64,000 bases of DNA from Candidatus Anderseniibacteriota bacterium (lineage in GTDB: Bacteria; Patescibacteriota; Andersenbacteria; UBA10190): contig JBBDZC010000008.1 in assembly GCA_040900375.1 (NCBI GenBank), positions 2,182 to 66,181 on the forward strand, written 5' to 3'. Each line of letters starts with the position of its first letter. The stretch's first letter is position 1. Shown here in pieces: positions 22,249-64,000 of this stretch. The notes beneath the pieces are model-generated. The model did not search any database. It worked only from the letters and a program-made list of their open reading frames with translations, and was not told the origin of the DNA. Made by a program: the position numbers and the translations under genes.

Positions 22249-22302
22249 TATACTGACCTTGCCAAGCAGCCGGAAAGAAGCTTCAATAGCAACGACTGCG
22301 AA

Positions 22303-24749: not shown

Positions 24750-28268
<3,519 letters not shown>

Positions 28269-28480: not shown

Positions 28481-28596
28481 CGCGGTGTCTTTAGCGAGAG
28501 GGAAACACCCGTTCCCATTCCGACCACGGAAGTTAAGCCTCTCAGCGCCGATGGTAGTTAGGATTATTACCCTAGCGAGAGTAGGTCGGTGCCGCG
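28481..28596 (+). rRNA. rrf: 5S ribosomal RNA.
   Basis: CCCGTTCCCATTCCGACCACGGAAGTTAAGC...AGCGCCGATGGTAGT...GCGAGAGTAGGTCGGTGCCGCG. Helix I closes CGCGGTG/GGTGCCGCG. Confidence 0.85.
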
Positions 28597-28654
28597 TATA
28601 ATGCGTTGAAAAGTACAAGGAAATCACGGAAGCATGCCCTGTATAGTGAATCCG

Positions 28655-45449: not shown

Positions 45450-45458
45450 GCGGCACCT

Positions 45459-47456: not shown

Positions 47457-47478
47457 GGTGTGATACACTTATAGGAGT

Positions 47479-48366
47479 ATGAATGCCACGAATGCCCTTG
47501 GTTTAAAGATGGTCGGGTTAACTAGCGCCATACTTCTTTTATTAGGAGGTTTATGGTGGGGCGGCCGCTACCTGCTGCGACCCGATACCACACCCGCGGC
47601 CACGCCGCTGGCGCAAGGAAGCTTACCTAACGAACGCACTGATAGTGACGGCGATGGGTTGCCCGACAAATTCGAGAGCATCTATCGCACTGATCCTCAT
47701 AACCCCGATACAGATGGCGATGGTGTTAGTGACTATGACGAAATTGCCCAGGGGCGGGACCCAGCCGTGGCGGGTACCCAGGACGAGGTTAAACCGGCGA
47801 CTGGCGAGAACATAACAGCGCTCACGACCTTCACCGAGCGCTACCTCGCGCAACTGCCGACTGCAATCACGCGAGATGACATAATGCAACAAGACCGACT
47901 CGAAGCTTTTGTGAGCCTCAACAAAGGACCGCTCCTCTCCACGCGACCCTCCACGGCAGTGCACACTAGCCCGGCCACCGGTCAAGAAGCTGTTGAGAGC
48001 TATCTTAATAGTATTTCGGCTGTGCACAATGCCCAGTTGCAACCAGTAACCAACGCCGACATTCAACAGGCCGTCACCCTCCAGCTCCAAGGTCAGCCTG
48101 ACACTATTGTGGGAATGACCCATAAGCTCGAGAAAAATTTACAAATTCTCCAAGGGGTAGCGGCGCCCACCGAAGTCGTGGCCCTTCACACCAAGCTCCT
48201 GGCAGCTACGGAATCGCTTCTGGGTAATACCCGCCTGCTCGCCGATATGAAAAATGATTTTGTGGGCGGCTTGATCGGGTCAAAGAATATTGAGGAATTA
48301 GGTCCGGTTTTTCAGCAAATTACCCAGGAAGTACAGGCGCTCGAGACCAAGTACGGCCTGGAATAG
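47479..48366 (+). CDS. N-terminally anchored TSP3-like Ca-binding repeat protein. Paralog of 44487..45449.
   Basis: DSDGDGLPDKFESIYRTDPHNPDTDGDGVSDYDEIAQGRDP. C-terminal region alignable to the 44487 protein (VALHTKLLAATESLL vs VELHKLLLGFTELLA). Confidence 0.65.
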   Translation: MNATNALGLKMVGLTSAILLLLGGLWWGGRYLLRPDTTPAATPLAQGSLPNERTDSDGDGLPDKFESIYRTDPHNPDTDGDGVSDYDEIAQGRDPAVAGTQDEVKPATGENITALTTFTERYLAQLPTAITRDDIMQQDRLEAFVSLNKGPLLSTRPSTAVHTSPATGQEAVESYLNSISAVHNAQLQPVTNADIQQAVTLQLQGQPDTIVGMTHKLEKNLQILQGVAAPTEVVALHTKLLAATESLLGNTRLLADMKNDFVGGLIGSKNIEELGPVFQQITQEVQALETKYGLE

Positions 48367-48397
48367 CTTAACGAAATAGTGGGGGCGTGACTACACC

Positions 48398-49963: not shown

Positions 49964-51894
49964 GGAGAGCTGGGTTACGAAAGCGAGTGCTGGGTACAGC
50001 TTGGCTCGTTGCTACAACCTTATATTTACTGACTCCGCCAGCCCAGGCCGTGCAAGTCCCGCCCGACTCGCTGCCACCAGCTCGAGTGGTCGCCGAAGAC
50101 CGCAGCACATTAACGCAGCAAGGCTGTATTGAACAGGTAGTTACCGAGAATATGGTTGATGTGCCGCCGGGCAAACCATATCGCGTGGCGGCGGCCGATC
50201 GTCTGCCGGGCACTCTCTTTTTCTGTGATCCCCAGGTGACCGCTCAACTTACTATCACACAAGGGCAGGTCGAAGGTGCTTTACTAAATGCATTTTGTGC
50301 GAGCTTGGGAGGCATTGTCGGAGGACCCTTGGGAGCCGGTTTAGGATTTTTAGGCTGTCAGGTGGGGGAAGTTGTAGTTAATAAAGTAGGAGCAGCAGTG
50401 GGCGAGACTGTTGCTGGGTGGGCGATTGATGCAATTCAAACACTGCTAAATTTTATTGCGGGTCTTGGTTTGTGGGTGCTAGCTCGAGCTTTAGAACTTG
50501 TTCAGTGGACTTTAGGTGCTAATCAGTTTATTACTAATCCCCTGGTTATCGCCGGCTGGCCGTTTATTCAAGGCCTCGCCAACATGGGTTTTATCCTAGC
50601 ACTCCTCTTTATCGCTTTCTCCACCACGCTCGGGATAGAAAACATGGGCGCGCGGCGGATGTTGCCACGGCTGCTCTTAGCCGCAATTTTGATCAACTTC
50701 AGCCTCATTATTAGCGGCGTCATTATTGATCTCACCAAAGTACTCATGGCAATTATGGCTACCACGTTGAGCCTCGGTGGTTTTTCATTGAACACCGTGA
50801 TGGCTTTCCTACAGCAAAATTCGCGCCTTTTGGAAATTACTGCCCTGCCTTTCGATACAGAAGGACTTAGTGCTGCCACATTGGCATTAGTTCAGATAGC
50901 CACTACAGCGTTGTTGATTTGGATTCTGGCAATTGCAGTAATCTGGCTCGCGATTGGTTTAATTATTCGCTATGTCATACTGGTATTTCTCCTCATTATT
51001 TCTCCGCTAGCATACTTGGCTTTTGCGTTCCCCAATGCGGGTGGTTTGGCTTCCCGATGGTGGCGAGAATTTTTCAAGTATGTCTTCTATGGACCAGTCG
51101 CTTTATTCTTCTTACTCATTGCTGCCCAAATTAATAGCCTCGGCAGTATCGCGTTATTCGGTGGTAGCAGTAGCATACTTCAGGACCTTCTTCTCTGGGC
51201 TCTCATGGTAGCCATGATCTTTGCGGCGGCAATTTTCAGCAAACAAGTGGGCGGCACAGTTGGTGTTATGGCCGTTAATTTTGTGAATAACAGAACAAAG
51301 CAGTTAGGACGAGGTGGTAGATGGGTAGGTCAAAAAGCAGCGGGTGCAGCCTATAAACGTAGTGGCATCAAAGACTTTGTGGATGAACGAAAAAAGTATA
51401 ATGAAAAACAGGAGCAGAAAAGAAGCAAAACATCGCTGGGGAGGCGCGTGGGTCAAGATTTCTATGCTTCACCAAAAAAGCGAGCAGAGACAGCCCAGGC
51501 AAGACAGGCAGCAGAGGATGTTAAAAAGGCTGGCGGTGGAGCTCCAGCTAATCACCCGGTCTTTACACCGCGTAATTTACGAAGTGAAGAAGTTGGTCGC
51601 GCTCTATCCTCACAACAAATTAGCACCATTATTGCTCAACCACCTTCAGCTGATAAATATAAACAAGTTTCCGCTATGGTGCAAAACATTGAAATCGTCA
51701 ATAATATGACAGCTGCGCATAAAGATGACATTATTGACGAGCTTCAAGATTTGTTAATGACTCCTCATGTTCCTGGGGCAGGACCGGCTGCTGTTGCTGA
51801 TCACGAGCAGGCTAAAAAAACAGCGCAACAAATACTAAATGAGTTCCATGCTACCAGGCGCCGTGCAGGTGAGCAGGGTTCTGAGAAAAAATGA
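49960..51894 (+). CDS. VirB6/TrbL-like polytopic membrane protein (putative T4SS inner-membrane channel component) with a long hydrophilic Lys-rich C-terminal tail.
   Basis: Signal plus about 8 TM helices with Trp/Pro-rich loops (GWPFIQGLANMGFILALLFIAF..., LLIWILAIAVIWLAIGLIIRYVILVFLLIISPLAYLAFAF). Position immediately upstream of PrgI/VirB4, as in Gram-positive T4SS loci. Confidence 0.5.
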   Translation: MRRAGLRKRVLGTAWLVATTLYLLTPPAQAVQVPPDSLPPARVVAEDRSTLTQQGCIEQVVTENMVDVPPGKPYRVAAADRLPGTLFFCDPQVTAQLTITQGQVEGALLNAFCASLGGIVGGPLGAGLGFLGCQVGEVVVNKVGAAVGETVAGWAIDAIQTLLNFIAGLGLWVLARALELVQWTLGANQFITNPLVIAGWPFIQGLANMGFILALLFIAFSTTLGIENMGARRMLPRLLLAAILINFSLIISGVIIDLTKVLMAIMATTLSLGGFSLNTVMAFLQQNSRLLEITALPFDTEGLSAATLALVQIATTALLIWILAIAVIWLAIGLIIRYVILVFLLIISPLAYLAFAFPNAGGLASRWWREFFKYVFYGPVALFFLLIAAQINSLGSIALFGGSSSILQDLLLWALMVAMIFAAAIFSKQVGGTVGVMAVNFVNNRTKQLGRGGRWVGQKAAGAAYKRSGIKDFVDERKKYNEKQEQKRSKTSLGRRVGQDFYASPKKRAETAQARQAAEDVKKAGGGAPANHPVFTPRNLRSEEVGRALSSQQISTIIAQPPSADKYKQVSAMVQNIEIVNNMTAAHKDDIIDELQDLLMTPHVPGAGPAAVADHEQAKKTAQQILNEFHATRRRAGEQGSEKK

Positions 51895-52397
51895 TGCAAG
51901 ACGATACATACAAAAGTAGGCCAGTGGGATCACTATTAACACGCGAGCGCAGTGAAGAAGAGCGCTACTTGAATGAGTTGCCTGATTTGCCACCAAGTTT
52001 GATATCTCTACTGATGTCAGCTAAAACAGGAGCTTTTATCCGTGGCTTGGTAAGAAATTATGACCTAGCCCTCGAAAAAGCGGCTATGATTGCTTTTATG
52101 GTTTTACAAATCAGCTTTGGTGAAAAAACATTACTACAATTATCTACCATGCTGGCATCTGATCTACAGCTGCCACTTGAAAAAGCACAGTCCATGGCCC
52201 AAGAAATTGAACGTGAACTCTTTGCGCCCATTATGCTGGAACTCAATGCGTATCTCACCCAGAAAAGAAAAATTACAGGCGGTAGCACCAGTACGCCAGT
52301 CTCGTCATCCCCGAGTGCTGCCGGCGGCGCGCGCAATGTGCTGGACCTCAAAAGTCAGCCGCGGCCACCACAGCCACCGGCAATCCCTCAACGATAA
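51891..52397 (+). CDS. Hypothetical protein with Ser/Thr/Pro-rich C-terminal tail, within the T4SS-like operon.
   Basis: 168 aa. Overlaps the upstream stop (ATGA). Confidence 0.45.
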   Translation: MMQDDTYKSRPVGSLLTRERSEEERYLNELPDLPPSLISLLMSAKTGAFIRGLVRNYDLALEKAAMIAFMVLQISFGEKTLLQLSTMLASDLQLPLEKAQSMAQEIERELFAPIMLELNAYLTQKRKITGGSTSTPVSSSPSAAGGARNVLDLKSQPRPPQPPAIPQR

Positions 52398-52416
52398 TTG
52401 GTAATCTGTACTACGT

Positions 52417-52875
52417 ATGCGCTTCCAAGTTCCCCAATTCGTGGACATCGAGGATAAAATCATCGGGCCGTTTACCCTGAAGCAGTTTTTGATTTATTTG
52501 AGCGGCGTGCTGGGGCTGATCCCGCTGTACCTGATTTTTGATCTCTCGCTGTTTATCACCGTGGCTATTCCCATCATGGGCATCGCCGTACTGTTTGCTC
52601 ACCTGCGTTTCCACGGCAAGAGCCTGTTCGCCGTCATCGCTAACGCCCTGCGGTTTTTCCTGCGCGGCCAAGTATTCGTCTGGCAGCGGACTGATCAACC
52701 CAAGCTCTTGCGGATTGCCGGAGAAGAATACGGAGATTTTTCGCCTGACGCTATGCTCACTATCCCCGAAGATAGCGTTTCGTCGCTCTCCCGCCGCGCC
52801 CGCGCCCTGGAAACCGAAGGCAAGCTTATCAAAGAGGACGCGCCTGACCCGTTGGCGGATGAAGCGGAAGAATAA
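52417..52875 (+). CDS. PrgI/VirB3-like small 2-TM protein, directly upstream of VirB4.
   Basis: MRFQVPQFVDIEDKIIGPFTLKQFLIYLSGVLGLIPLYLIF...ITVAIPIMGIAVLFAHL. Matches PrgI-family architecture and gene position. Confidence 0.55.
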   Translation: MRFQVPQFVDIEDKIIGPFTLKQFLIYLSGVLGLIPLYLIFDLSLFITVAIPIMGIAVLFAHLRFHGKSLFAVIANALRFFLRGQVFVWQRTDQPKLLRIAGEEYGDFSPDAMLTIPEDSVSSLSRRARALETEGKLIKEDAPDPLADEAEE

Positions 52876-52953
52876 TTGACAACATGATTCGTTCTATTGA
52901 AAAGCAAAATAATTACAGGTTACAAGTTATCCGTTACCAGTTACCATTTTATT

Positions 52954-53640
52954 ATGTTTGAAATGCAACAGCGTAAAAAGAATAAGCCGTCGCAGCAGTT
53001 AATCCGCATCGCCCACATTCGCGATGGCGTAGCGATTTTAAACGACGGGACGATGCGGGCAACACTGATGGTCTCCTCGGTCAACTTTGCCTTGAAATCA
53101 GAGGATGAACAAAATGCCATTGTTTATGCCTACCAAGATTTTCTCAATGCTCTCGATTTTCCGCTGCAGGTCACCGTCTCCTCGCGCAAAATGGATATCA
53201 CACCGTACCTGGAAGAAGTGAAAGAGCGGCGCAATAAACAGCAAAACGAGCTACTGCGGCTGCAGATGGATGAGTATATTAACTTCGTGGGTGAATTAGT
53301 GAAGAGCGCGGATATTATGACGAAGACGTTCTTTATCACCGTTCCTTTCTCGGTCCAGCAAAACAAAAGAGAAGGATTCTTGGACCGCTTCTTTAAAAGC
53401 GCCAAGGGGGTAGCGGGTAAGCTCACACTCACTGATCAAGAGTTTGAGCACAATCGGGCCCAGCTGCTCCAGCGAGTGGAGCAGGTGGCGGTGGGGCTGC
53501 GGGCCATAGGCTTACGTCTAATTCCGCTGCAAACCCAGGAATTACTTGAACTCTTTTATACCATGTACAATCCGGCCACGTCGCGCAACCAGCGCCTACA
53601 CAACGCCGCCCAGTTGAAAGTTCAAGAAACTGAAGTCTAG
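52954..53640 (+). CDS. virB4: VirB4 N-terminal domain, encoded as a separate ORF (track ORF starts at TTG 52897).
   Basis: IRIAHIRDGVAILNDGTMRATLMVSSVNFALKSEDEQNAIVYAYQDFLNALDFPLQVTVSSRKMDITPYLE... matches the N-terminal membrane-associated domain of Gram-positive-type VirB4/TraE ATPases. Confidence 0.6.
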   Translation: MFEMQQRKKNKPSQQLIRIAHIRDGVAILNDGTMRATLMVSSVNFALKSEDEQNAIVYAYQDFLNALDFPLQVTVSSRKMDITPYLEEVKERRNKQQNELLRLQMDEYINFVGELVKSADIMTKTFFITVPFSVQQNKREGFLDRFFKSAKGVAGKLTLTDQEFEHNRAQLLQRVEQVAVGLRAIGLRLIPLQTQELLELFYTMYNPATSRNQRLHNAAQLKVQETEV

Positions 53641-53732
53641 AAGGCTGTCTAGTACGCAATCGCGGGTCAATGGTATGATGAAGTTATGCGGTCTCAAGCA
53701 TGGTTTTTTGTTGTTGATCCTTCATCCTTTCT

Positions 53733-55580
53733 ATGAGTGTTTTTAGTGATGTTGTGGGTGTGCTCAAAGGAAAGCAGTCTGCCTCATCGGATGAGGCCGA
53801 GCGAGCGGCCCAGGCAACACTCAAGCAGTTTAACCAGGGGATTTCCTCTCTGAAGGATATTATTGCCCCGGCGGGCTTTCGGGTCACGCCCCAGTACATT
53901 GAAATTGATGGGAAATTTGCTACAACGCTCTTTGTGACGACCTATCCGCGCTTTTTAGACACTAATTGGTTTGCCCCAATCGTTAATTTCGACGTGGAGT
54001 TCGATGTTGCCATGTTTATTTACCCGCAAGACTCCGCTGCGATTTTAAAACAGCTCCGTAAGCGAGTGACGCAAGTTTCAGCGTCGATTGCCATGCAGTC
54101 AGAAGCGGGCAAAGTCCGCGATCCCCAGTTAGAGACGGCGTATCAAGACATTGAGGAGCTCCGTGATCGCTTAGTGCAGGGGACCGAGCGCTTCTTTCAA
54201 TTCGGGCTGTATCTCACGATTTACGGCAAAACCCAAGAAGAACTCGATGATATTTTGTCGCAAATAGAGGTGTTGCTCGAGGGCCGCCTTGTGTACGCCA
54301 AGCCCGCCCTATTTCAAATGGAGCAAGGCTTTACGTCTACTCTGCCGCTCGGCCGCGACGAGCTTGGAGTGACGACTAATATGAATTCTTCACCACTCTC
54401 CACGAGTTTTCCCTTTGTTAGTTCTGACCTTACTAGTAATTCTGGCGTGCTCTACGGGATTAACTTGCACAACAACAGCCTCGTGCTCTTCGACCGCTTT
54501 AGTTTAGAAAATGCCAATATGGTTATTTTGGCTAAGTCTGGCGCGGGCAAGAGCTACACGGTCAAACTAGAGATCCTCCGCAGCCTCATGTTTGGCACCG
54601 AGGTGATTGTAATTGATCCCGAGCAAGAATACCGCTACCTCTCGGATGCGGTCGGCGGCAGCTACTTGCGAATTGCGATTGCCTCTGATCATCGGATTAA
54701 TCCCTTCGATTTGCCCGCCTTAGCTGAAGACGACAATCCTGAATCAATTTTGCGCGAGAATATCACGCGGCTTACCGGACTGATCTCGCTCATGATTAAC
54801 GGCATGTCGCCCGAGGAGCAATCGCTGGTTGACCGGGGCTTATGGGAAACCTACGCCATTAAAGATATTACCCGCGGCACGCGCTGGACTAAGCCAGATG
54901 TGCCTACCCTGCAAGATTTCTACCAGATTATCCACGACATGGCGGGGGGCAACAGCATTGCGGTGCGCCTCGAACGCTATGTCGAAGGTACTTTTGCTGG
55001 CGTCTTTAACCGGCCGACAAATATTGATCTCAACCAGCAGCTGATTGTTTTTAATGTGCGCGACATGGAAGAGGAGTTGCGGCCGATTGCGATGTACGTG
55101 ATCTTGGGCTTCATCTGGAATCGCGTCCGCAGCCAGCTCAAGAAGCGCTTGCTCGTCGTGGATGAGGCCTGGATCATGATGCAGCACGAGGAATCAGCCC
55201 AATTCTTATTCTCAATGGCGAAACGAGCCCGCAAATACTTCCTCGGTGTAACCACAATTACGCAGGACATTTCTGATTTCTTACAATCCAAGTACGGTAA
55301 ACCCATTATTACTAACTCTTCCTTGCAACTGCTCTTGCGGCAATCGCCAGCCGCGATTGATCTGCTCGCCCAAGTTTTCTATCTCACCGACCATGAGAAA
55401 TTCCGGCTTCTGGAAAGCGACGTGGGCGAGGGCATCTTTTTTGCCGGCTTAAAACACGTAGCGATCAAAGTGGTCGCCAGCTATGCCGAGGACCAAGTGA
55501 TTACTTCTGATCCCCAGCAGGTGTTAGCGATTGAAGCGGCTAAGCGCGAGATGGCGCAAAATCAACGAACCGCCCGCTAG
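53733..55580 (+). CDS. virB4: VirB4/TrbE/CagE-family T4SS ATPase (middle and C-terminal ATPase domains).
   Basis: Walker A ILAKSGAGKSYT. Walker B LLVVDEAW. Middle-domain match IIAPAGFRVTPQYIEIDGKFATTLFVTTYPRF. 615 aa. Confidence 0.85.
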   Translation: MSVFSDVVGVLKGKQSASSDEAERAAQATLKQFNQGISSLKDIIAPAGFRVTPQYIEIDGKFATTLFVTTYPRFLDTNWFAPIVNFDVEFDVAMFIYPQDSAAILKQLRKRVTQVSASIAMQSEAGKVRDPQLETAYQDIEELRDRLVQGTERFFQFGLYLTIYGKTQEELDDILSQIEVLLEGRLVYAKPALFQMEQGFTSTLPLGRDELGVTTNMNSSPLSTSFPFVSSDLTSNSGVLYGINLHNNSLVLFDRFSLENANMVILAKSGAGKSYTVKLEILRSLMFGTEVIVIDPEQEYRYLSDAVGGSYLRIAIASDHRINPFDLPALAEDDNPESILRENITRLTGLISLMINGMSPEEQSLVDRGLWETYAIKDITRGTRWTKPDVPTLQDFYQIIHDMAGGNSIAVRLERYVEGTFAGVFNRPTNIDLNQQLIVFNVRDMEEELRPIAMYVILGFIWNRVRSQLKKRLLVVDEAWIMMQHEESAQFLFSMAKRARKYFLGVTTITQDISDFLQSKYGKPIITNSSLQLLLRQSPAAIDLLAQVFYLTDHEKFRLLESDVGEGIFFAGLKHVAIKVVASYAEDQVITSDPQQVLAIEAAKREMAQNQRTAR

Positions 55581-56258
55581 GTGGCGGCTGACACCCCTAT
55601 GGCTGATGCAGTTGCCCAAGCCCAGCAACGAGAAGAGAGAGCTCGCGCCGCACTAGAGGCGCGAAAAAATCAAGCTCGCAGGGCGGGCGGCAGAGCTGGA
55701 GCCAGGGGCGGAGAGGCGGCGGGAGCCGCGGCTGGGCAGGCTGGCGGCATGGCGGCGGGAGGAGCGGCCGGGGCTGGGGTCGGGACAGTGGTGGGAGGTA
55801 TACGGGGAGCAATTGCCGGCGCACCGGCGGGCGGGGTAGGGGCCATTCCCGGAGCTTTTGCCGGCGCGGCCGAGGGCGCGGCCGAATTTGGTGCCCAGGG
55901 GGCGCGCATGGGCGGCAGTGTCGGCAGAAAAGTCGGGCGATATACCGGTAAATACGCGGGGAGAAAAGCAGGGGAAGCAGCGGCCAGTACGGCGGCCAGT
56001 GCCGCTAGTGTGGATAAAAAGATACAAATTAGGATGGCGCAAGCGCAAGCGGCGCGGGCTCAACAAGAAGCGATGGCGGAGCAAGACGTGGGTGATGTCC
56101 TCGAGCGAAAGATTAAAAAAACGATCAGTTATCCCATTAAAAAAGTTTTCTCATTCGCCCTGCCCTTTCTCGTGCTCGGTTTATTACTTCTGATGTTCTT
56201 CTTTATTATTCTGATGGTCGTACGCCAAGCGACAAATTCGGGAGGTAACCTCTCATGA
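55581..56258 (+). CDS. Gly/Ala-rich low-complexity protein with a C-terminal TM anchor (GTG start), in the T4SS-like operon.
   Basis: AAGAAAGQAGGMAAGGAAGAGVG... repeats. C-terminal FALPFLVLGLLLLMFFFIILMVV. Long antisense ORFs here are artefacts of the GC-rich repeats. Confidence 0.45.
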   Translation: MAADTPMADAVAQAQQREERARAALEARKNQARRAGGRAGARGGEAAGAAAGQAGGMAAGGAAGAGVGTVVGGIRGAIAGAPAGGVGAIPGAFAGAAEGAAEFGAQGARMGGSVGRKVGRYTGKYAGRKAGEAAASTAASAASVDKKIQIRMAQAQAARAQQEAMAEQDVGDVLERKIKKTISYPIKKVFSFALPFLVLGLLLLMFFFIILMVVRQATNSGGNLS

Positions 56259-56779
56259 TCAACCAACATTTCTTTGCCATACTTTTCACCACTCTCCTGC
56301 TTACGAGTAGTATGATGCTAGCTTTACCCGATGCTTTCGCTCAAGGCGCAAGTGGTGCTAGTTGTAGTGATAACAATCCGTGTCCTGAATATTACATTTG
56401 CCAGAAGTCTCAAGGGAGCACCACGGGAACTTGCGTGTGTCCATTTGGCGAATTTGAAGCGCCAATTAACGAGAAGGTTTCCGGCGATATTTGTGCGTAC
56501 CTGGCCAATAATCAAAGCACACCTTTTCTCTCAACGGTAAAAGTAATTGTTAATTTTTTGACAGCGATCGTGGTCGCCATCGGGCTCATTATGGTCGTCG
56601 CGGCCGGCTACGTGTATATGACGGCGGGTGGGGATGCGAGCAAAGTGGGAAAGGCTAAGACAATGATCCAAGCCGCCCTATTCGGCATTGCGCTGGCGCT
56701 GACGGCCTTCCTGGTTCTCAATACTATTAGCCCACAATTTGCTTCGGAGGTTAAAGAGCCAGAGTTTAATACGCCGTAG
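56255..56779 (+). CDS. VirB2/TrbC-like pilin candidate. Signal peptide, Cys-rich N-domain, then two hydrophobic helices separated by a short charged loop.
   Basis: MINQHFFAILFTTLLLTSSMMLALPDAFA signal. VKVIVNFLTAIVVAIGLIMVVAAGYVYMTAGGDASKVGKAKTMIQAALFGIALALTAFLVL resembles the T4SS pilin core. Confidence 0.45.
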   Translation: MINQHFFAILFTTLLLTSSMMLALPDAFAQGASGASCSDNNPCPEYYICQKSQGSTTGTCVCPFGEFEAPINEKVSGDICAYLANNQSTPFLSTVKVIVNFLTAIVVAIGLIMVVAAGYVYMTAGGDASKVGKAKTMIQAALFGIALALTAFLVLNTISPQFASEVKEPEFNTP

Positions 56780-58019
56780 TGTCAGCGAGGGTGAGGGCGA
56801 GCAAAACAAAGTGAAGCGCGGCCAAATCGTTTTTCCAAAAAATGGTATCAACGAGACCGAAAAGCAGGAGAGAGAGCAGCGATAACAAGAGCGCTTGAGT
56901 ATGAGGCTTACGCCACTTAGCGCGCCAGAAGATAGCGACATGGAGACCAATAAAGGAGAAAAGTCCGAGTAAACCGGTATTGAGCCATAGGGATAAAAGC
57001 CAGTTATGCGGGTCACGCACGACAAACTCTGGCAGGGGTTGGGGGCCTGTGGATAAAGACGCGGCATAATCTTGAAAACGTTCATGGAGCACCTGTTGAT
57101 AGGCTGGTTCAAATTGTCCTAAGCCAATACCGAGGAGAGGATGGTGCTGCAGTAGCTCAATACTGACACTCCACAACTGTTGACGGACGGATAGGGAATT
57201 AGCCTGGCCACTCGTCCAGGGATTAACTAAATACGCCAGCCGGCCCGAGTAAACCAGGCTACCAGCCGCCAGGACTATAAAGATCATGAGATACCATTTG
57301 GCGCGGCGCGGCGGGGGGAGCCACGCCGTAATGCCAACTAGGAGTGTGGCCACGACCGCAACGAGAGCGGCCGCTGATTGGGTCGCCAAGAGAGCCACGC
57401 TCATGGTGAGGATGCCGAGACGTGTTGCCCACGAGTGATCGCCGGCTGCCAGGGAGCGCCACAGCGCCAACACTAAGAGCGGGGCCAGCCAGAGAGCGAG
57501 GGAGTTAGGCACATCATAGACACTCGTAATGCGTTCGTCGCGGCCAATCTGGGTTAACCCCCACAGAGCCGTAGCGGTGCCCGACCAAACGAGTCCCCGG
57601 ATGAGCCGGTGGGCGATTAATTGGTTCTGCGCCGCGCTGAAGATAAGCCAGCTGAAGAGAAGAGGAATAAAAATCCAACTTTTTAAAATACCGAGGCTCA
57701 CCCGTGTCTGCGGTGAAATAATGGTGGCGATAATACTGGCGCCTAAGAAACAGAGCCCAAAGATAAGGACAGATCGCGGCATTTTCTGGGCGGCTATCAG
57801 CCAGGAGTGGCGCACGGCTCTTTGGCAAAGACCAAGAATAGCGACGACGATCACGCTGATCTCAAAAACATTTGTAGGCAGCCCGAAGAGGGAGAGACGC
57901 AGAAGATACGCTGGCAGTAAGAAGATGGTGATGACAAGAGCCGTATGGTAGTGCCACAGACCCAAGGGCACCAGGGACAGCATGGCGAACCCGATTAAGG
58001 TGTCAGAGAGAAGATTCAT
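56766..58019 (-). CDS. O-antigen-ligase-like (Wzy_C domain) polytopic membrane protein. Candidate oligosaccharyltransferase/ligase.
   Basis: HHPLLGIGLGQF...PHNWLLSLWLNTGLLGL matches the Wzy_C signature. About 10 TM. 3' end overlaps the pilin gene by 14 nt (convergent). Confidence 0.7.
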   Translation of the reverse strand: MNLLSDTLIGFAMLSLVPLGLWHYHTALVITIFLLPAYLLRLSLFGLPTNVFEISVIVVAILGLCQRAVRHSWLIAAQKMPRSVLIFGLCFLGASIIATIISPQTRVSLGILKSWIFIPLLFSWLIFSAAQNQLIAHRLIRGLVWSGTATALWGLTQIGRDERITSVYDVPNSLALWLAPLLVLALWRSLAAGDHSWATRLGILTMSVALLATQSAAALVAVVATLLVGITAWLPPPRRAKWYLMIFIVLAAGSLVYSGRLAYLVNPWTSGQANSLSVRQQLWSVSIELLQHHPLLGIGLGQFEPAYQQVLHERFQDYAASLSTGPQPLPEFVVRDPHNWLLSLWLNTGLLGLFSFIGLHVAIFWRAKWRKPHTQALLLSLLSLLLFGLVDTIFWKNDLAALHFVLLALTLADTTAY

Positions 58020-59391
58020 GGGAAGGATCGGTCGTAAGTTCTAGAGCGATGAGCACAATGATTACAATCAGGAGGTGAGCATATAACAAACCATTAATGA
58101 ATTGAGCCTGCACCATCCACGCGAGCAAGCTGGCCGCGACCGCCAGGCTGCCAGGCTGCCGATAGAGCAACCACCGGCGGACAAAGATTAAGCCTATGGC
58201 TACCCAGGGCAGTATAAACAACGCGGCGCCGATGATGCCGGTAGTCACCCATAGGGTAAGGAGACTGTTATCAGCTCCGGCCCGAGAATGAATGGTGAAA
58301 TTATCTAGTAAACCCGCGGCGGCGGCCGCAAATTGGTAGGCATTATAGCCTACGCCAGTGCCTGCGTGTGCGACCGCCAAAGGCCAAACAGCCGCCACGG
58401 ATTCTAGCCGCAGCGTCACAGTGGGATCATACGTAACAAGTCCCCACACACGATCGCGGAGTAACCATAGGCTGGTAGTCGCCAGTGCTAAACATATACC
58501 GAGAATACTTAGCAGGCGCATGGTGGCAGGCACTCTGTTCTTTGGTCGCGATCGCCCGATCACCCACAAGGGTGAAATCAGAGTCCCGGCAATTAGCAGG
58601 GCACTAACGGCGCTACGGGATTGGGTGAGGAGAAGAGCAACGAGGAGGGCACCAGTGACTCCGAGGAGTAGTAATAGGTTATAGGGCACAGAGTCTTGCG
58701 GGGCGGGCCGCGCCAGTAAACTAATAACCCAGGGAAGTGCCAGCACGAGCAGACCGCCAAAAAAATTGGGATCGAGCCACGTGGAGACTAAACGATTTTG
58801 ATGCGGGTCCCACCCAGAACCAAAACCAATGAGATTGGGCACCAAGAAGAGCTGCAATGCGCCGAGTCCAACTAGCAATGATAGCGTGATTAAGAGACCG
58901 GTGCGCAAGCAAGAGCGATAGAAAGAAAATTGCGCCAGAAAAAGCAGCGTCGGTAGCAGCGCGAGGTAAGTAACCAAGCGTACCCAGTAGGCCCCCGCAA
59001 TTAGGGTGGCCGAGGAGCCCAGATCAGGGGCATGAATGATGAGAGTCCATAAACTCCAGGCAAGAAAAGGTAGGAATAAGAGGTATGAGATGAGCGGCAG
59101 AGAATGCGAAGGTGACACTGCCTGGTTGCCGTGAAGGGGTAATTTTCTGGGACGGAGCCACCGCAGGAGCAGCGCCGAGGCTAGGACAAGGACAACGGCA
59201 ACATCACTGACGAGTAATCCCCCTCCCTGACCCGGCAAGGGGAGCCGCACCAGTTGGCCCGCTACCAGCGAACCCATAAGGACACCGAGGGCAATGGCGG
59301 GAAAACGCACTACTCCCAAACTTGCCACGCTCAATGCACCGAGGGCGAAAAAAGCCGGTAGAGGCGCCGCCAGAATCGTTGCAGTAAGCAT
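58003..59391 (-). CDS. Second O-antigen-ligase-like (Wzy_C domain) membrane protein.
   Basis: AHAGTGVGYNAY...HSRAGADNSLLTLWVTTGIIG. About 11 TM. Confidence 0.65.
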   Translation of the reverse strand: MLTATILAAPLPAFFALGALSVASLGVVRFPAIALGVLMGSLVAGQLVRLPLPGQGGGLLVSDVAVVLVLASALLLRWLRPRKLPLHGNQAVSPSHSLPLISYLLFLPFLAWSLWTLIIHAPDLGSSATLIAGAYWVRLVTYLALLPTLLFLAQFSFYRSCLRTGLLITLSLLVGLGALQLFLVPNLIGFGSGWDPHQNRLVSTWLDPNFFGGLLVLALPWVISLLARPAPQDSVPYNLLLLLGVTGALLVALLLTQSRSAVSALLIAGTLISPLWVIGRSRPKNRVPATMRLLSILGICLALATTSLWLLRDRVWGLVTYDPTVTLRLESVAAVWPLAVAHAGTGVGYNAYQFAAAAAGLLDNFTIHSRAGADNSLLTLWVTTGIIGAALFILPWVAIGLIFVRRWLLYRQPGSLAVAASLLAWMVQAQFINGLLYAHLLIVIIVLIALELTTDPSHESSL

Positions 59392-60104
59392 ATCGTTCCA
59401 GCATAGTGCTTTCGAAAATACCTGTCAGCTGATTCGTCATAGAGGCGTGTCTTGAGCGCCAGGGAGGGCTGACTGGCGCCGCGCTGGTGATAGGCGCGAG
59501 CTTGCGGCACGAGCACAACCCGCCAACCGGCTTGACGCAGGCGCCGGCCGAAATCCACATCCTCCCAGTAGAGAAAGAATTGGGGATCAAAGCCACCCAC
59601 AGCATCAAAGGCATGGCGCCGAACCAGGCAGGCGCCGGCCGAAACCCATCCGCACGATATGGGTTGAGCCGGAACAGGAGGCGGCTTTATAAGCCTACGC
59701 CAGAGTAGTGATAATAGAGTAACATCCGATCCAAAACTCGCCTCTTCCACGCGACCAGAATCAGTCACGAGCAGCAACCCGGCCACACCGACTTTCGGAT
59801 GATCAACTAAATACTTTTCGGCAACGGCAAGAGCACCAGGAAAAATTGCGGCGTCAGGATTAAGGAAGAGAATGTAGTCACTCATTGTGGATTGGGCGCC
59901 ACGGTTGCACGCGGTGGCAAAACCAACATTGTGTGACTGGGGGAAATAGTGCATTCCCAACTTATGCACTAGATTGGTAGTGGCATCGGTCGAAGCATTA
60001 TCAACAACCACCACTTCTGCAATCCCGTTCTGGCGTAAGCTGGCTAGGCAGGCGGTGAGCGTGGCGGCAGAGTTGTACGTTACCACAACAGCACTCGTGG
60101 TCAT
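59331..60104 (-). CDS. Family-2 glycosyltransferase.
   Basis: TSAVVVTYNSAATLTACLASL...VVVVDNASTD. Confidence 0.8.
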   Translation of the reverse strand: MTTSAVVVTYNSAATLTACLASLRQNGIAEVVVVDNASTDATTNLVHKLGMHYFPQSHNVGFATACNRGAQSTMSDYILFLNPDAAIFPGALAVAEKYLVDHPKVGVAGLLLVTDSGRVEEASFGSDVTLLSLLWRRLIKPPPVPAQPISCGWVSAGACLVRRHAFDAVGGFDPQFFLYWEDVDFGRRLRQAGWRVVLVPQARAYHQRGASQPSLALKTRLYDESADRYFRKHYAGTICLLQRFWRRLYRLFSPSVH

Positions 60105-60994
60105 GGGGTGCGACGCTTACCGGTGATACCGCGACGTGCATCCTGGAGGCCTTGAGCGACCACGCTACTATGCTTACTAGGCCAGACCCGATGCCGCAAC
60201 CCCCGCAGACGATTAACAAGCCGCCACCATAATGAGAGTGGCCAAGGAGTTTCGTGTTCCATGTAGAGGGCGCCATTGCGGACTAAGTAATAGAGTTTTT
60301 CTGCGGAACGAGCGGCGGATGTCTCCTTGTGGCGCACCCGGACAGTGGAGGCGACTTGCAGAAGCACGCCTCGACGGCGCAACCGTGAACCCAAGAGAAC
60401 ATCTTCCCAGTATAAAAAATAGTGCTCGGGCAAGCCTTGGACCGAGAGCAACAACGTTAAGGGGGCAGTCATAAAAGCACCGTGAATATAATCTAAGTTA
60501 CGAGCCGTATACTTGTCGGCTGATCGCACAAGGTGGGCCCGTCCCGTCCACATATTCACCCGCCCGCCGCCGTGAATTGCACTGTGGCCCTCTTCAATGA
60601 CTGCTCCCGCCAACGTTGGTTGGAGATGTGCTGCCCACCAGGTGTGCAGCTTCGCTACCGTATCAGGGTACACGTGCACATCATTATTCATAATAACGAC
60701 TATATCTGATCCCTGGGCGCCAGTAGAGACAAGCGCCCCGAGACCAAGATTAACTCCCGCGCCGTATCCAGCATTATTTTCTGGCGTCAGAATTTGATAG
60801 TGAGGCGAGGGGGGCAGTGTCAGCGGCGTGGGGCCATGATCAACAATGATAATTTTTGCCGGTGGGGCCGAGCTGCGTTCCAAAGCACGAATAGCATTTT
60901 GGGTAACGTGGGCCGCACCATAATGGACAAGTATGACAAAGCATTGTCGTTTTTGTGGATTGGCTGTGGATAATACTGGGGAAAACCCTATCAT
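60101..60994 (-). CDS. Family-2 glycosyltransferase.
   Basis: CFVILVHYGAAHVTQNAIRAL...IIIVDHG. DxD region IVVIMNNDV. Confidence 0.8.
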   Translation of the reverse strand: MIGFSPVLSTANPQKRQCFVILVHYGAAHVTQNAIRALERSSAPPAKIIIVDHGPTPLTLPPSPHYQILTPENNAGYGAGVNLGLGALVSTGAQGSDIVVIMNNDVHVYPDTVAKLHTWWAAHLQPTLAGAVIEEGHSAIHGGGRVNMWTGRAHLVRSADKYTARNLDYIHGAFMTAPLTLLLSVQGLPEHYFLYWEDVLLGSRLRRRGVLLQVASTVRVRHKETSAARSAEKLYYLVRNGALYMEHETPWPLSLWWRLVNRLRGLRHRVWPSKHSSVVAQGLQDARRGITGKRRTP

Positions 60995-61050
60995 TATAGT
61001 GGAAAGAATGTGTGAAAATTAATTTTATTTGTCTTAATTAAGCCTTTTTA

Positions 61051-61965
61051 TTATTTATCGGTATGGAGGCCGTGCCAAAAGTAGAGTGCGGTCAGATTTT
61101 GAAAGAGGCGGGGAAACGTCAGCTTTTCTCCCAGTATACTCGTCAGCAACCAGAGTAAGAGTGGGCCACCGAGATATATGGCTATTTTCTGTTTATAGAA
61201 GCGGCGGCGAGAAAGGGAGGGAAGTAAAGCTACCGCCGGGTGCAATTTTTGGTAGATAGCCAAACTCTGGCCGGTGAGAACCTGGCGATGGCAAATTGCC
61301 CTAACGCTATAGCGGTGATGATGGAGGGCACGGGCCTGATGCAGGACATGCAACTGCAACCCGCGTGCGCCCAGGCGCCGCCCCAGTTCTAAATCCTCCC
61401 AGCCATACGCGGTAAATTGAGGAGCAAAATGATTGTTATGTACCATCTCGCGCTTGAGTGAAAGGTGAGCACCATAGAAGAAGTGTCGTGGATCGGCGGA
61501 GCGGCGACCTAGGAGAGCATCATAATTATTCTGCTGGCCACCATGCGTCATCCACATCATGAGCGGCGAAGGATTAATCCGTGGATCCCAGGTAACAAAA
61601 CCGAGGGCGGCCTGGTGAGGATCAGGATACTGCTGGTGAAATTCTAGATGAGCCAGCAGCGCGCCGGGTCGCAGTATAATATCCGCTCCTAGGAACAAAA
61701 TAATATCCCCAGTGGCCGCCTGGAGGCCGCGATTACGAGCCTGGGCAGAGCCGGCGTGCGGGCCTTTCACTACTAGATAGGACCCAGGCGAGGGCGGTGA
61801 AGACCGTTCGACTACAGGGACAACATCAGCTGCGGAGCCATCATCACTAATGATTAAGCGTAAAACCCAGCCTGGCGGCAAGCGCTGCTGCCACAACGCG
61901 GTGAGCGTGGCGGGCAAGACTGGTTCACTATTATACGTCGGGATAATAACATCACACTGCGGCAT
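61051..61965 (-). CDS. Family-2 glycosyltransferase.
   Basis: CDVIIPTYNSEPVLPATLTAL...LIISDDGS...FLGADI. Confidence 0.8.
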   Translation of the reverse strand: MPQCDVIIPTYNSEPVLPATLTALWQQRLPPGWVLRLIISDDGSAADVVPVVERSSPPSPGSYLVVKGPHAGSAQARNRGLQAATGDIILFLGADIILRPGALLAHLEFHQQYPDPHQAALGFVTWDPRINPSPLMMWMTHGGQQNNYDALLGRRSADPRHFFYGAHLSLKREMVHNNHFAPQFTAYGWEDLELGRRLGARGLQLHVLHQARALHHHRYSVRAICHRQVLTGQSLAIYQKLHPAVALLPSLSRRRFYKQKIAIYLGGPLLLWLLTSILGEKLTFPRLFQNLTALYFWHGLHTDK

Positions 61966-61977
61966 ACAGATTGACTC

Positions 61978-63399
61978 TTAGGAAGAGGCGGGAGTAAGTA
62001 GTAAGGTTAACTGTTGCCGCGTCAGACTCCGCAAAATAATATTACAGGCAACATAGAATACGCTGGCCATCATAAGTTGCAGCCATACGGGGACCGTCGG
62101 TGGAAAAATCAGGAGCAGACAGATTGTCGCCAGTGCCGCGCCGGCAATACGCACAAGTAGGCGCAGATTATAGTGATAGCCGATGCTTCGATAAACCCAG
62201 GCCCCAGCCGTAACCGTCGCAATAATTTCTGTCGCCACAGTGGTCCAGGCTGCGGCCAAGGCTCCCCACAGGGGAATCGTGGCGAGATTAGCGAGAACGT
62301 TGCCTACGACGAGCATGGCGTACAGTATCAGGAGCATCTTTTGTTTGTCCAGGGCCACCAAGGTAAACCCAAAAATATTACCAAAGAACATACTGGCCAG
62401 CGCGAGGCTGACCACGCGGAGGAGTGGGCCAGCAGCTTCGTAGCCTGGACCAGCAATGAGTAAGACGAGTTGTTCAGTTGTCATTTGTAAGAAAATTAAT
62501 ACTAACACCACCGCGATTGTGATCACGTGCAGACTTTCCGAGAGCAGCCGACGACAGTGCGCAATCTTGCCTGCCTGCCATGCTGCTGTTAGTCGCGGTA
62601 AGAGCAGTCCCCCAAACATAGCGGGGAAGAAGAGGCCGCTTTCAATGAGGCGGTACGCAAAGCCGTAGTGACCAACTTCGGCCGGGGTGCGAAAGAATGA
62701 AAGTATGAGGGTATCGACCCGAAAGTAAATTGCATTCAAGACAAGCATTGCTCCTAAGGGCCAGGATACCCGCAGCAACTGGTGCCAGGTAGGGCGGTTA
62801 AACTTAAAGCGGTAGGGAAAGTAAATAGGCAATAAGCGTTGGTGCAGCAAGAAAGCACTCGCGGCCCCGAAGGTAAACATACTCACCATACCCACGAGTC
62901 CAACGGCAAGCGGCCAGAGCAGGACAATACCCACAATTTGGACGAGGCGACCCACTAGATCGCCAACAGTGACACGCCAGACAACGCTGTATTTTTGGTA
63001 CACCCCCATTAATAATTGACTTAATGATTGGAAGCTAAGGCCGAGAGCAACAATAAAGAAAGCGAGCGCAACCTCGCGCCAGGATGGAATGAGCAGTAAG
63101 ACTGCGCCACCGATAATAAAGACGAGGAGGAGTAAGGCTAAGCGCAGGGATATGATATGCGAAAGAATATGAGTTTCCTGCTGGGGATTTTTAGCAATTT
63201 CCCGCGTTAATGTTAAGTAGAGGCCAAAATCAGCCGCAAGGAGGAGGAGAGCGCCATAAGCTAAAAGCAGGCTATAAAAGCCAAAACCAGCCGCGCCGAG
63301 GTAGCGAGTTAAAAGAGCAGTGGCCACTATTCCCAGCGCCGCGCTGGAGAGGCGGCCAAGGGAGGCGAAGGCTGTGTTTAAGAGAATTGAGTGCGCCAT
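61978..63399 (-). CDS. wzx: Wzx-type oligosaccharide flippase (MOP superfamily polysaccharide biosynthesis protein).
   Basis: 14 TM. LGIVATALLTRYLGAAGFGFYSLLLAYGALLLLAADFGL typical of the Wzx/RfbX N-terminus. Confidence 0.8.
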   Translation of the reverse strand: MAHSILLNTAFASLGRLSSAALGIVATALLTRYLGAAGFGFYSLLLAYGALLLLAADFGLYLTLTREIAKNPQQETHILSHIISLRLALLLLVFIIGGAVLLLIPSWREVALAFFIVALGLSFQSLSQLLMGVYQKYSVVWRVTVGDLVGRLVQIVGIVLLWPLAVGLVGMVSMFTFGAASAFLLHQRLLPIYFPYRFKFNRPTWHQLLRVSWPLGAMLVLNAIYFRVDTLILSFFRTPAEVGHYGFAYRLIESGLFFPAMFGGLLLPRLTAAWQAGKIAHCRRLLSESLHVITIAVVLVLIFLQMTTEQLVLLIAGPGYEAAGPLLRVVSLALASMFFGNIFGFTLVALDKQKMLLILYAMLVVGNVLANLATIPLWGALAAAWTTVATEIIATVTAGAWVYRSIGYHYNLRLLVRIAGAALATICLLLIFPPTVPVWLQLMMASVFYVACNIILRSLTRQQLTLLLTPASS

Positions 63400-63479
63400 G
63401 AATGACCTCTTTTAAAAATTGAGCATAGCACGAAAGGGGTACTCTAGAAGTACCTAAGAATGTGCCGGGAGGTATGAGT

Positions 63480-63839
63480 TTAACTAAAACGGGGACGGAC
63501 GACCACGCGGCGATTTGGCTCCTGCCCGGTGCTCTCGGTGCTCACTTCTGGATGAGTAGCTAAAGCCGTATGGAGCACACGCCGGTCGGCGGCCCCCATG
63601 GGTTCGAGGGTGACAGTACGCCCAGTCTGGCGGGCACGTCGGGCTGCTGCTTCCGCTAATTGAGTCAGTGTTCGTTCCCGCCGAGCGCGGTAGCCATTAA
63701 CATCGACGATAACGTACAGAGGGCTACCTAACTGGCGGCGGAGAATAGAGCGGATGATATGTTGCAGGGCTTCGAGGTGAGTCCCATGAGTACCGATAAG
63801 TAGTTTACCAGTTTCACCCGCTTCAATGCTCAATTGCAA
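63480..63839 (-). CDS. Jag/KhpB-like RNA-binding protein (KH plus R3H domains). May extend upstream of 63839.
   Basis: KH-like GKLLIGTHGTHLEALQHI. R3H LEPMGAADRRVLHTALATHPEVSTESTGQEPNRRVVV. Confidence 0.65.
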   Translation of the reverse strand: MQLSIEAGETGKLLIGTHGTHLEALQHIIRSILRRQLGSPLYVIVDVNGYRARRERTLTQLAEAAARRARQTGRTVTLEPMGAADRRVLHTALATHPEVSTESTGQEPNRRVVVRPRFS

Positions 63840-64000
63840 TTGAGCTTCGGCAGCGTGAGGCCTCGTGGTGACTTTGGCAGGCTCACTACTTAAAGCGGCA
63901 TTTTTCAGAAGTTCATCGTCGGCTTCTTCTGGAGAAGAGGTGGCGAGTGTCGCCGGCGGCAGGGAGAGGCGGCGGCAATGGACACGGATCTCAATAAAAC

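Follow-up and report, generated by a model that had tools for sequence, protein, structure and literature searches.

A conserved Wzx/Wzy_C glycan-assembly operon convergent on a type IV secretion pilin gene in an Andersenbacteria-type bacterium, and its candidate acceptors

The closest described relatives of the system considered here are transferases of the Wzy_C family: the lipopolysaccharide (LPS) ligase WaaL, the protein O-oligosaccharyltransferases PglL/PglS and TfpO (PilO)/TfpM, the WsaB/WsfB enzymes of monoderm surface-protein glycosylation, and TacL, a monoderm enzyme that joins a chain that is linked to undecaprenyl diphosphate (Und-PP) to a glycolipid after a Wzx-type flippase (TacF) and a repeat-unit polymerase have acted (PMC5727136). 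Three residues, R215, R288 and H338, are critical in WaaL and conserved in PglL, and the PglL_A motif (PF15864) separates PglL from WaaL (Schulz et al., PMC3643930). For the Candidate Phyla Radiation (CPR; also called Patescibacteria), the make-up of the envelope has been described as unclear (PMC5220378); CPR genomes reportedly lack the lipid A/LPS genes lpxC and kdsA, and the cells are predicted to be Gram-positive-like. Here we analyze a 64-kb stretch of CPR DNA (64,000 nucleotides of contig JBBDZC010000008.1, hereafter the window), in which two Wzy_C genes, named WzyA and WzyB, lie in one minus-strand operon with three family 2 glycosyltransferase (GT2) genes and a Wzx flippase gene, convergent on the pilin gene of an operon resembling a type IV secretion system (T4SS). 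The database proteins that are 100% identical to WzyA and WzyB carry the name Candidatus Andersenbacteria, and the window shows CPR hallmarks: protein genes interrupt its rRNA operon, and its 23S rRNA, 3.5 kb long, carries a group I intron.

Our findings indicate that this operon probably directs a lipid-linked, flipped and en bloc transferred glycan to an acceptor other than LPS. An earlier note, made from the sequence alone, had recognized the two Wzy_C, three GT2 and Wzx genes; all six lie where it had placed them and are confirmed by Pfam and, for the weakly scoring GT2_2, by an ortholog profile (Table 1). It had also proposed a single minus-strand operon, with which the short distances between the six genes agree: successive genes overlap by 17, 61 and 4 nt or lie 56 and 12 nt apart, a spacing compatible with a single transcription unit. 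The overlap that it had reported between the 3' ends of WzyA and the convergent pilin gene is exactly 14 nt (56766-56779). A promoter and terminator scan of positions 55500-64000 returned nothing beyond shuffled expectation.

We next consider the two Wzy_C proteins. Against the 31.7-bit cut-off of Wzy_C (PF04932), WzyA scores 74.8 bits and WzyB 47.6 bits, and for each of them the orthologs, at 37-51% identity, number more than 100. A BLAST comparison between them is not significant; their profiles align in hhalign with 98% probability (E = 6e-14), and they are distant paralogs. AlphaFold2 models (mean predicted local distance difference test, pLDDT, of 94.2 for WzyA and 87.6 for WzyB) are all-membrane with short loops. 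In Foldseek searches, the only significant PDB fold match of the WzyA model was WaaL (7tpg_B, E = 8e-9, TM-scores 0.63/0.65); the WzyB model matched the same structure (E = 1e-5, TM-scores 0.52/0.58), followed by the SEDS proteins FtsW and RodA. Both proteins are therefore modeled as polytopic enzymes with the GT-C_B (WaaL/SEDS-like) fold.

At the level of sequence, single-sequence PDB searches with WzyA, WzyB, Wzx and GT2_2 gave no match, and profiles alone succeeded. The WzyA profile matches the WaaL of C. metallidurans (7TPG, E = 1.2e-7) at the motif SVRLQLW...HPxLGIGLGQFE, and the WzyB profile has no PDB sequence match. The invariant WzyA residues R279 and H338 align with R288 and H338 of E. 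coli WaaL, in a comparison to which hhalign assigns a probability of only 22%. WzyB has invariant R259 (in a TQSR motif), R328 and H368, the last sitting six residues away from the aligned WaaL position. WzyA and WzyB each lack a different one of the three positions critical in WaaL. The NCBIfam RfaL equivalog model is matched by WzyA at 25.7 bits, against a cut-off of 277 bits, and not by WzyB. Taken together, the residues and the model make WzyA the better candidate for the terminal ligase or oligosaccharyltransferase. WzyB may be a repeat-unit polymerase or a partner subunit of WzyA, because it is the second and more divergent paralog, is always paired with WzyA, and is absent from the diverged L107/L059 contigs described below.

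Gene structure further links these proteins. The last 61 nt of GT2_1 overlap the start of WzyB out of frame (59331-59391 in the window), and the overlap is exactly 61 nt in 13 of the 13 distinct Andersenbacteria loci measured, where the proteins are only about 40-50% identical (L numbers denote the loci compared). The loci recorded for this feature are L001, L003, L007, L009, L012, L020, L021, L023, L024, L027, L033, L040, L044, L047 and L048. Both reading frames of the overlap are conserved. GT2_1 and WzyB form a single open reading frame (ORF) in L035, L118 (7803-10004) and L119 (7721-9991), and the fixed overlap may be dual-coding sequence that an ancestral fusion left behind; possibly it is a site of frameshifting. 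In two different lineages a fusion joins WzyB to WzyA, in L127 (2085-4655; protein P0270, 856 aa) and L126 (705-3302; P0325, 865 aa), with a WzyB-like N-terminal half and a WzyA-like C-terminal half in each. The fusions may be assembly errors, but P0270 is found on two contigs. The WzyB::WzyA fusions suggest that the two Wzy_C paralogs work as a pair; with the GT2::WzyB fusions, they indicate that GT2_1, WzyB and WzyA act as one unit. We know of no description of two Wzy_C paralogs working as one unit among WaaL, Wzy or oligosaccharyltransferase enzymes.

The remaining operon genes would supply the upstream steps. Wzx follows the R3H/jag gene in all related loci; its similarity to the NCBIfam Wzx_EPS model is weak and far under the cut-off. 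Wzx was also considered as a MurJ-type lipid II flippase, a reading rejected on its best family, Polysacc_synt, and on the GT2 and Wzy_C genes that always follow it. GT2_3 scores 119 bits against the NCBIfam EPS_EpsD model, under the model's cut-off. GT2_2 is a genuine GT2 despite its sub-threshold Pfam score, because a profile of 13 orthologs matches the galactofuranosyltransferase structures 9dtp and 9oa3 (E = 1.5e-7) and nine of these orthologs match PF00535. Wzx and glycosyltransferases thus share one operon, as in Wzx/Wzy-dependent pathways.

To place the operon in an evolutionary context, we compared 37 loci from genomes and assemblies and about 15 Andersenbacteria-type loci from metagenomes, about 60 distinct loci overall. 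Every sufficiently long locus of the core clade has the order yidC-jag-Wzx-GT2-GT2-GT2-WzyB-WzyA, convergent on pilin-...-VirB4-TraC-like-PrgI-...-TSP3, with VirB4 identities of 75-89% and glycan-enzyme identities of 30-50%. In 29 of 41 distinct loci, the 3' end of WzyA overlaps that of the pilin gene (median -20 nt), and the adjacency of the glycan and T4SS operons is retained down to 57% VirB4 identity. In relatives, jag closes an rpmH-rnpA-yidD-yidC-jag block adjoining dnaA-dnaN; this block lies upstream of the glycan operon in L001, L003, L005, L118 and L125, and in L003 the stop of jag abuts the start of Wzx. In the window, ksgA precedes the T4SS operon. The gene content of the glycan operon is invariant across a class-level clade, unlike that of strain-variable capsule and O-antigen loci.

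Variation appears outside the core clade. L118 and L119 keep the core arrangement with the GT2_1-WzyB fusion (VirB4 67% identical in L118), and L125 (VirB4 57%) keeps it, though an additional gene separates WzyA from the pilin gene. The WzyB::WzyA fusion gene of L126 (VirB4 59%) is convergent on a T4SS operon, and that of L127 (VirB4 85%) belongs to an Andersenbacteria-type locus. L120/L121, with no adjacent VirB4, have yidC-jag-Wzx-Wzy_C-WzyA followed by DUF4446 and infB. Wzx and the pair of WzyB and WzyA, located downstream of yidC-jag, therefore form the deepest conserved unit of these arrangements; most of these lineages, not all, keep the convergent T4SS operon. An exhaustive HMMER search returned 1,212 clusters of the WzyA-like family at E<=1e-30, extending beyond the core clade.

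A metagenome scan based on the pilin identified a second kind of association. The diverged contigs L107 and L059 (GC 44% and 58%; proteins 39-75% identical) encode on a single strand, in this order, Wzx, a WzyA-like protein, a membrane-anchored protein, a sugar-1-phosphate nucleotidyltransferase, a solute-binding protein and five T4SS_pilin genes, with no WzyB, GT2 or VirB4 gene nearby. This is the only link between WzyA and pilins that is not explained by shared ancestry of the convergent arrangement. Its weight is limited: only one lineage shows it, unrelated genes stand in rows in compact CPR genomes, and about 38 other long pilin-like loci have no Wzy_C gene within 10 kb, although roughly 30 of these encode giant fusion proteins and are not pilin arrays. 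An argument that the rarity of the WzyA family made this co-localization statistically striking was withdrawn once the 1,212 clusters had been found. The roughly 30 metagenome loci of giant proteins came from the same scan; the proteins have an N-terminal pilin-like hairpin, and the loci were rejected as comparable pilin arrays. In these giant-ORF pairs (L063 9848-20199, L071 7609-20248, L067, L075, L082, L095, L100 and about 25 more), the motif GGYxYMTAGG stands at the N-terminus, the first ORF spans about 650-1000 aa and the next more than 2500-3400 aa, and no VirB4, Wzx or Wzy_C gene lies within 10 kb. They look like surface proteins anchored by a pilin-like hairpin.

The neighboring operon on the plus strand ends with the pilin gene (Table 1). 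The window pilin scores 21.4 bits against the 26.6-bit T4SS_pilin cut-off and is thus sub-threshold; its relatives match PF18895 with E-values down to 9e-15. It has a signal peptide, a Cys-rich N-terminal segment, a hairpin of two transmembrane segments (GYVYMTAGG) and a short C-terminal tail ending in EFNTP. Its orthologs, of which a homolog search found only 27 close ones, share a short mature N-terminus, a G-x-FEVGLPG motif, the two-segment hairpin (GGYxYMTAGG ... LNTIxP) and a variable C-terminal tail. With VirB4, PrgI/VirB3 and TraC-like genes beside it, it is a VirB2/TrbC-type T4SS pilin; the gene that the earlier note called pilin-like does not encode a type IV pilin, the class on which the PglL and PilO systems act. 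The patescibacterial MPF-FATA-like T4SS comprises VirB4, PrgI/VirB3, VirB6-like proteins and VirB2-like pilins (PMC12102498).

Several observations concern this pilin and its neighbors in their own right. The public annotation of the window pilin (P0241, 114 aa) starts about 60 codons downstream and loses the signal peptide and Cys-rich segment, both of which orthologs share; the 174-aa reading is better supported. Between signal peptide and first transmembrane segment, the L001-L037 orthologs have the strongly conserved motif G-x-F-E-V/A-G/P-L-P-G, which is often preceded by one or two Cys and corresponds to FGEFEAPI at about residues 63-70 of the window protein; a role in processing, in disulfide formation or in recognition is conceivable. 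The protein encoded at 55581-56258 and its orthologs are Gly/Ala- and Lys/Arg-rich with a C-terminal transmembrane segment, always between VirB4 and the pilin; the orthologs are highly variable (113-261 aa) and have no family match. Tandem pilin genes are fragmented in L003 (11196-12307; GCA_021414205.1), where one fragment lacks the GGYMYMTAAG loop segment, and both are intact in its close relative L005 (11195-12517); the cause of the fragmentation may be that the tandem paralogs recombined, or a fault of assembly. Two of three large exported proteins with bacterial TSP3 (calcium-binding) repeats and Cys-rich DNDGDG modules open the T4SS operon, which also contains large proteins of no assigned family, and these TSP3-repeat proteins are candidate adhesins and glycoproteins.

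Table 1. Genes and other features of the 64-kb window. Empty cells: no entry.
Feature	Position	Strand	Evidence or remark
Low-GC stretch	6001-8000		GC 0.39, window about 0.51
tRNA-Arg	6479-6553		within the low-GC stretch
Exported TSP3-repeat protein	13685-15919		Cys-rich DNDGDG modules
rRNA operon	18505-28597		16S to 5S
CCA-adding enzyme gene	20502-21956		between tRNA-Ile and tRNA-Ala
MscS-like membrane protein gene	22837-23592		after tRNA-Ala
Group I intron	27552-27862		in the 3,525-nt 23S rRNA gene
T4SS-like operon	44487-56258	+	convergent on the glycan operon; Pfam matches and orthologs in L001-L005 and L118
Exported TSP3-repeat protein	44487-45449		T4SS operon
Exported TSP3-repeat protein	47479-48366		T4SS operon
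Ortholog of the TrbL/VirB6-like gene of L118	49960-51894		T4SS operon
PrgI/VirB3	52417-52875		T4SS operon
TraC-like	52897-53640		T4SS operon
VirB4 ATPase	53733-55580		T4SS operon
Gly/Ala-rich transmembrane protein	55581-56258		T4SS operon
VirB2/TrbC-like T4SS pilin	56255-56779	+	convergent on WzyA; Pfam T4SS_pilin/TrbC, E 3e-4
WzyA	56766-58019	-	417 aa; Pfam Wzy_C, E 8e-21
WzyB	58003-59391	-	462 aa; Pfam Wzy_C, E 2e-12
GT2_1	59331-60104	-	Pfam PF00535, E 2.8e-22
GT2_2, divergent GT2/GT-A	60101-60994	-	Pfam GT2, E 1e-4, just under cut-off
GT2_3, EpsD-like	61051-61965	-	one C-terminal transmembrane segment; Pfam PF00535, E 1.3e-19
Wzx-type (MOP/Polysacc_synt) flippase	61978-63399	-	first gene of the glycan operon; Pfam PF01943, E 4.8e-21
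R3H/KH Jag/KhpB-like	63480-63839	-	precedes the glycan operon; Pfam R3H, E 1e-19

The reading that we favor is a housekeeping Wzx/Wzy-type glycan assembly of a monoderm CPR bacterium, with its genes attached to the yidC-jag operon close to the origin. A polyprenyl-diphosphate-linked oligosaccharide would be started by a phosphoglycosyl transferase encoded elsewhere, extended by the three GT2 enzymes on the cytoplasmic face and flipped by Wzx. On the outer face, WzyB would handle the glycan, most likely as a repeat-unit polymerase or partner subunit, and the WaaL-like WzyA would move it en bloc to a non-LPS acceptor. The earlier note had proposed that an oligosaccharide is built, flipped and transferred en bloc on an undecaprenyl carrier; the gene set that this requires is present, and the lipid carrier is a part that we infer. 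The acceptors would most likely be exported proteins, with the VirB2-type pilins of the convergent T4SS among the candidates. We hold the assignment to exported proteins, pilins included, as a preference short of even confidence; if it is correct, the operon would therefore be a general O-glycosylation system and not a pilin-dedicated one. That the pilin is among the substrates is a more doubtful proposition. A narrower form, in which WzyA and WzyB are an obligate pair acting as the O-oligosaccharyltransferase that decorates VirB2-type pilins and other T4SS-associated surface proteins in Andersenbacteria-related CPR, seems rather unlikely to us.

The pilins themselves are candidate targets. 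Both termini should face outward, because the signal peptide is cleaved and two transmembrane helices follow. Their termini are often rich in Ser, Thr, Pro, Ala and Gly; the mature N-terminus, frequently Ser/Thr/Pro-rich, has the consensus AQxPTP, and the C-terminal tail contains three or more Ser/Thr in 13 of 28 pilins, some tails running to 100-240 residues of Ser/Thr/Gly/Pro. These sequences appear compatible with a PglL-like mode of glycosylation in low-complexity regions, and unlike the obligate substrate of a universally conserved operon. An exported protein other than the pilin carries the linker PLPSSPSPSASPS. The earlier note had pointed to Ser/Thr/Pro-rich linkers in several proteins, among them the 13685 and 51891 products, as suitable acceptors: both quoted segments exist, and the 51891 product is a poor candidate for an extracytoplasmic acceptor because no signal peptide or transmembrane segment was found in it.

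Several results weigh against protein, and especially pilin, acceptors. No Ser/Thr acceptor position is conserved among the pilins, several tails are only 4-6 residues long, some N-terminal segments lack Ser and Thr altogether, and only one of the 28 pilins ends in Ser/Thr. The precedents invoked by the earlier note, PglL and PilO/TfpO, act on type IV pilins and not on VirB2-type pilins, and to our knowledge no O-glycosylated VirB2-type pilin has been described. L126 has no recognizable pilin gene beside its fusion enzyme, L120/L121 have none at all at the locus, and about 38 other long pilin-like loci carry no Wzy_C gene within 10 kb. On the enzyme side, the position of WzyA equivalent to WaaL R215 is not Arg, and a Pfam scan at E<=0.01 matched only PF04932 in WzyA and WzyB, with PglL_A (PF15864) and Wzy_C_2 absent. 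PglL/PglS are proteins of 520-600 aa with a C-terminal periplasmic or tetratricopeptide repeat (TPR) region, whereas the window proteins (417 and 462 aa) have neither; TfpO/TfpM genes are co-oriented directly downstream of a type IV pilin gene, whereas WzyA is convergent with a T4SS pilin gene, and they modify a pilin C-terminal Ser/Thr, whereas the window pilin ends differently. The pathway also has gaps: no initiating phosphoglycosyl transferase (WecA/WbaP type) was found among window ORFs of at least 150 aa or in the flanks of related loci, and sugar-nucleotide genes, a chain-length regulator and an LCP ligase are absent from the operon and the 64-kb window. Finally, in most CPR classes T4SS genes lie near dnaA, rnpA, rpmH and ksgA (PMC12102498), so that any operon added behind jag would come up against the T4SS operon as a matter of course, and the adjacency may be inherited synteny.

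A rival reading proposes a product of another kind, a lipid-anchored or wall-associated glycopolymer of the TacL or enterobacterial common antigen (ECA) type. WzyB would then polymerize the glycan and WzyA would ligate it to a membrane glycolipid, or the polymer would be passed to peptidoglycan, with the pilin a mere neighbor. TacL provides the precedent of a monoderm Wzy_C ligase that uses a glycolipid (PMC5727136), and WzyA is of WaaL/TacL size without an extra acceptor-binding domain. The operon is contiguous with a membrane and envelope housekeeping block, its gene content is invariant over a deep clade as for a core envelope component, its Wzx-Wzy_C-WzyA trio survives in L120 without an adjacent pilin, and the pilins offer no conserved acceptor site. 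Yet the window holds no genes for a glycolipid anchor, for teichoic acid (phosphotransferase, LicD-type) or for LCP proteins, most characterized non-LPS Wzy_C ligases are protein O-oligosaccharyltransferases, and the L107/L059 operon couples Wzx and WzyA with five pilin genes; CPR bacteria are, moreover, thought to scavenge lipids, so that a dedicated glycolipid anchor is not assured. We regard this explanation as possible and incline against it.

Less credible is a secreted or loosely attached exopolysaccharide or capsule, for which both Wzy_C proteins would serve as polymerases or as subunits of one, and the glycan would not be ligated covalently to protein or lipid. The best NCBIfam similarities of Wzx and GT2_3 are indeed to exopolysaccharide models (Wzx_EPS and EpsD), all far under their cut-offs; Wzy polymerases belong to the same superfamily, WzyB is very divergent, and the WzyB::WzyA fusions are compatible with a two-subunit polymerase. 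WzyA, however, keeps the equivalents of WaaL His338 and Arg288 and a detectable sequence similarity to a true ligase, no polysaccharide co-polymerase (PCP/Wzz), tyrosine kinase or export component accompanies the genes, and capsule and exopolysaccharide loci usually vary among relatives, whereas the glycan operon is constant. Such a product appears quite unlikely.

The smallest chance among these alternatives falls to a dedicated glycosylation of the T4SS pilus, a special case of protein glycosylation in which WzyA, or WzyB with WzyA, is pilin-specific and decorates a VirB2-type host-contact pilus; we judge it very unlikely. The frequent 3' overlap of WzyA with a convergent pilin gene, the depth to which this adjacency is held, the five same-strand pilin genes of L107/L059 and the low-complexity, Ser/Thr-rich pilin termini speak for it. 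These are countered by the lack of a common acceptor and the nearly tail-less form of some pilins, by the arrangements of L126 and L120, by an orientation of the operon shared with yidC-jag and not with the T4SS genes, by family features of TfpO/TfpM and PglL that the window proteins do not have, and by the generally origin-proximal T4SS of CPR (PMC12102498). A role in LPS synthesis was rejected, on taxonomic grounds only (the CPR group-level reports above), in agreement with the earlier note's hypothesis of a transfer not directed to LPS, and no lpx, kds or waa genes occur in the 64-kb window.

Two further regions of the window are recorded here (Table 1). The rRNA operon contains 16S, tRNA-Ile, the CCA-adding enzyme gene, tRNA-Ala, the MscS-like gene, the 23S rRNA gene and then 5S, and the Rfam intron match explains just about half of the extra length of the 23S rRNA. 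The low-GC stretch holds tRNA-Arg, an unannotated 185-aa ORF and a DUF2157 membrane protein, and may be an insertion beside a tRNA gene.

Returning to the favored glycan assembly, its interest lies partly in its neighbor. A T4SS-like system with VirB2-like pilins is cited in PMC12102498 as one of the few whose necessity for epibiotic life has been shown. The glycan operon adjoins, and may decorate, this host-contact machinery; conserved, origin-proximal and running from flippase to ligase, it is a candidate, open to testing, for the principal glycoconjugate on the surface of these organisms. If a VirB2-type pilin is the acceptor, O-linked glycosylation of pilins would include conjugative-type pili besides type IV pili; if the WzyA-WzyB pair acts on it, the pilus would be the first of the conjugative type (VirB2) to be found glycosylated and the pair a two-subunit Wzy_C transferase, with the modification on a machine thought to mediate epibiotic host interaction. 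With a lipid acceptor, a group believed to live on scavenged lipids would have a lipoglycan. The type of pathway is known; its new aspects are that it occurs in a monoderm CPR bacterium and near the origin, that the Wzy_C paralogs are paired or fused, and that a VirB2-type pilus is its neighbor.

Among known systems, the patescibacterial T4SS (PMC12102498) is matched by the neighboring operon in gene repertoire and in position near dnaA, rnpA and ksgA; a text search of the available part of that study found no mention of Wzy_C, Wzx or GT2 genes beside the T4SS. Full-text literature searches likewise linked no Wzy_C, Wzx or glycosylation genes to the patescibacterial T4SS and returned no CPR protein-glycosylation machinery. 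For the glycan enzymes, WaaL (7TPG; E. coli K-12) shares with WzyA the Wzy_C family, the GT-C_B fold, the R288/H338 equivalents and a length of about 400-420 aa; it differs in that the host group here reportedly lacks LPS, so that the acceptor cannot be assumed to be lipid A-core, and in the low RfaL score and absent R215 equivalent of WzyA. TacL, PilO and WsaB were compared with the window proteins by their descriptions, not their sequences. By that measure TacL, a Wzy_C protein of 397 aa, resembles WzyA in its size of about 400 aa, monoderm host and Wzx-type flippase, whereas its pathway includes teichoic-acid-type (phosphotransferase, choline) and glycolipid-anchor genes, none of which are in the window.

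The protein glycosylation systems complete the comparison. WsaB/WsfB (Geobacillus, Paenibacillus) are Wzy_C enzymes that glycosylate monoderm surface proteins from glycosyltransferase-containing glycan clusters, as in the window, yet their clusters use an ABC transporter (Wzm/Wzt) in place of Wzx, WsfB has a TPR motif, and their acceptor is a surface-layer (S-layer) protein, none of which was identified here. The S-layer locus of Paenibacillus alvei, considered as an analogue with Wzx, Wzy and an oligosaccharyltransferase, was dropped on a review showing an ABC transporter. TfpO (PilO)/TfpM, at 420-470 aa, are close in size to the window proteins and have a Wzy_C core with a catalytic His, and their gene stands beside the cognate pilin gene. 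PglL/PglS (Neisseria, Acinetobacter) have type IV pilin neighbors, where the window has a VirB2-type pilin and a monoderm CPR host; they share with the window proteins the Wzy_C core and have the catalytic Arg/His set of which WzyA keeps the R288 and H338 equivalents, their genes often lie near pilin genes, as at this locus, and the Ser residues to which they move Und-PP-linked glycans en bloc stand in low-complexity stretches of a wide range of exported proteins.

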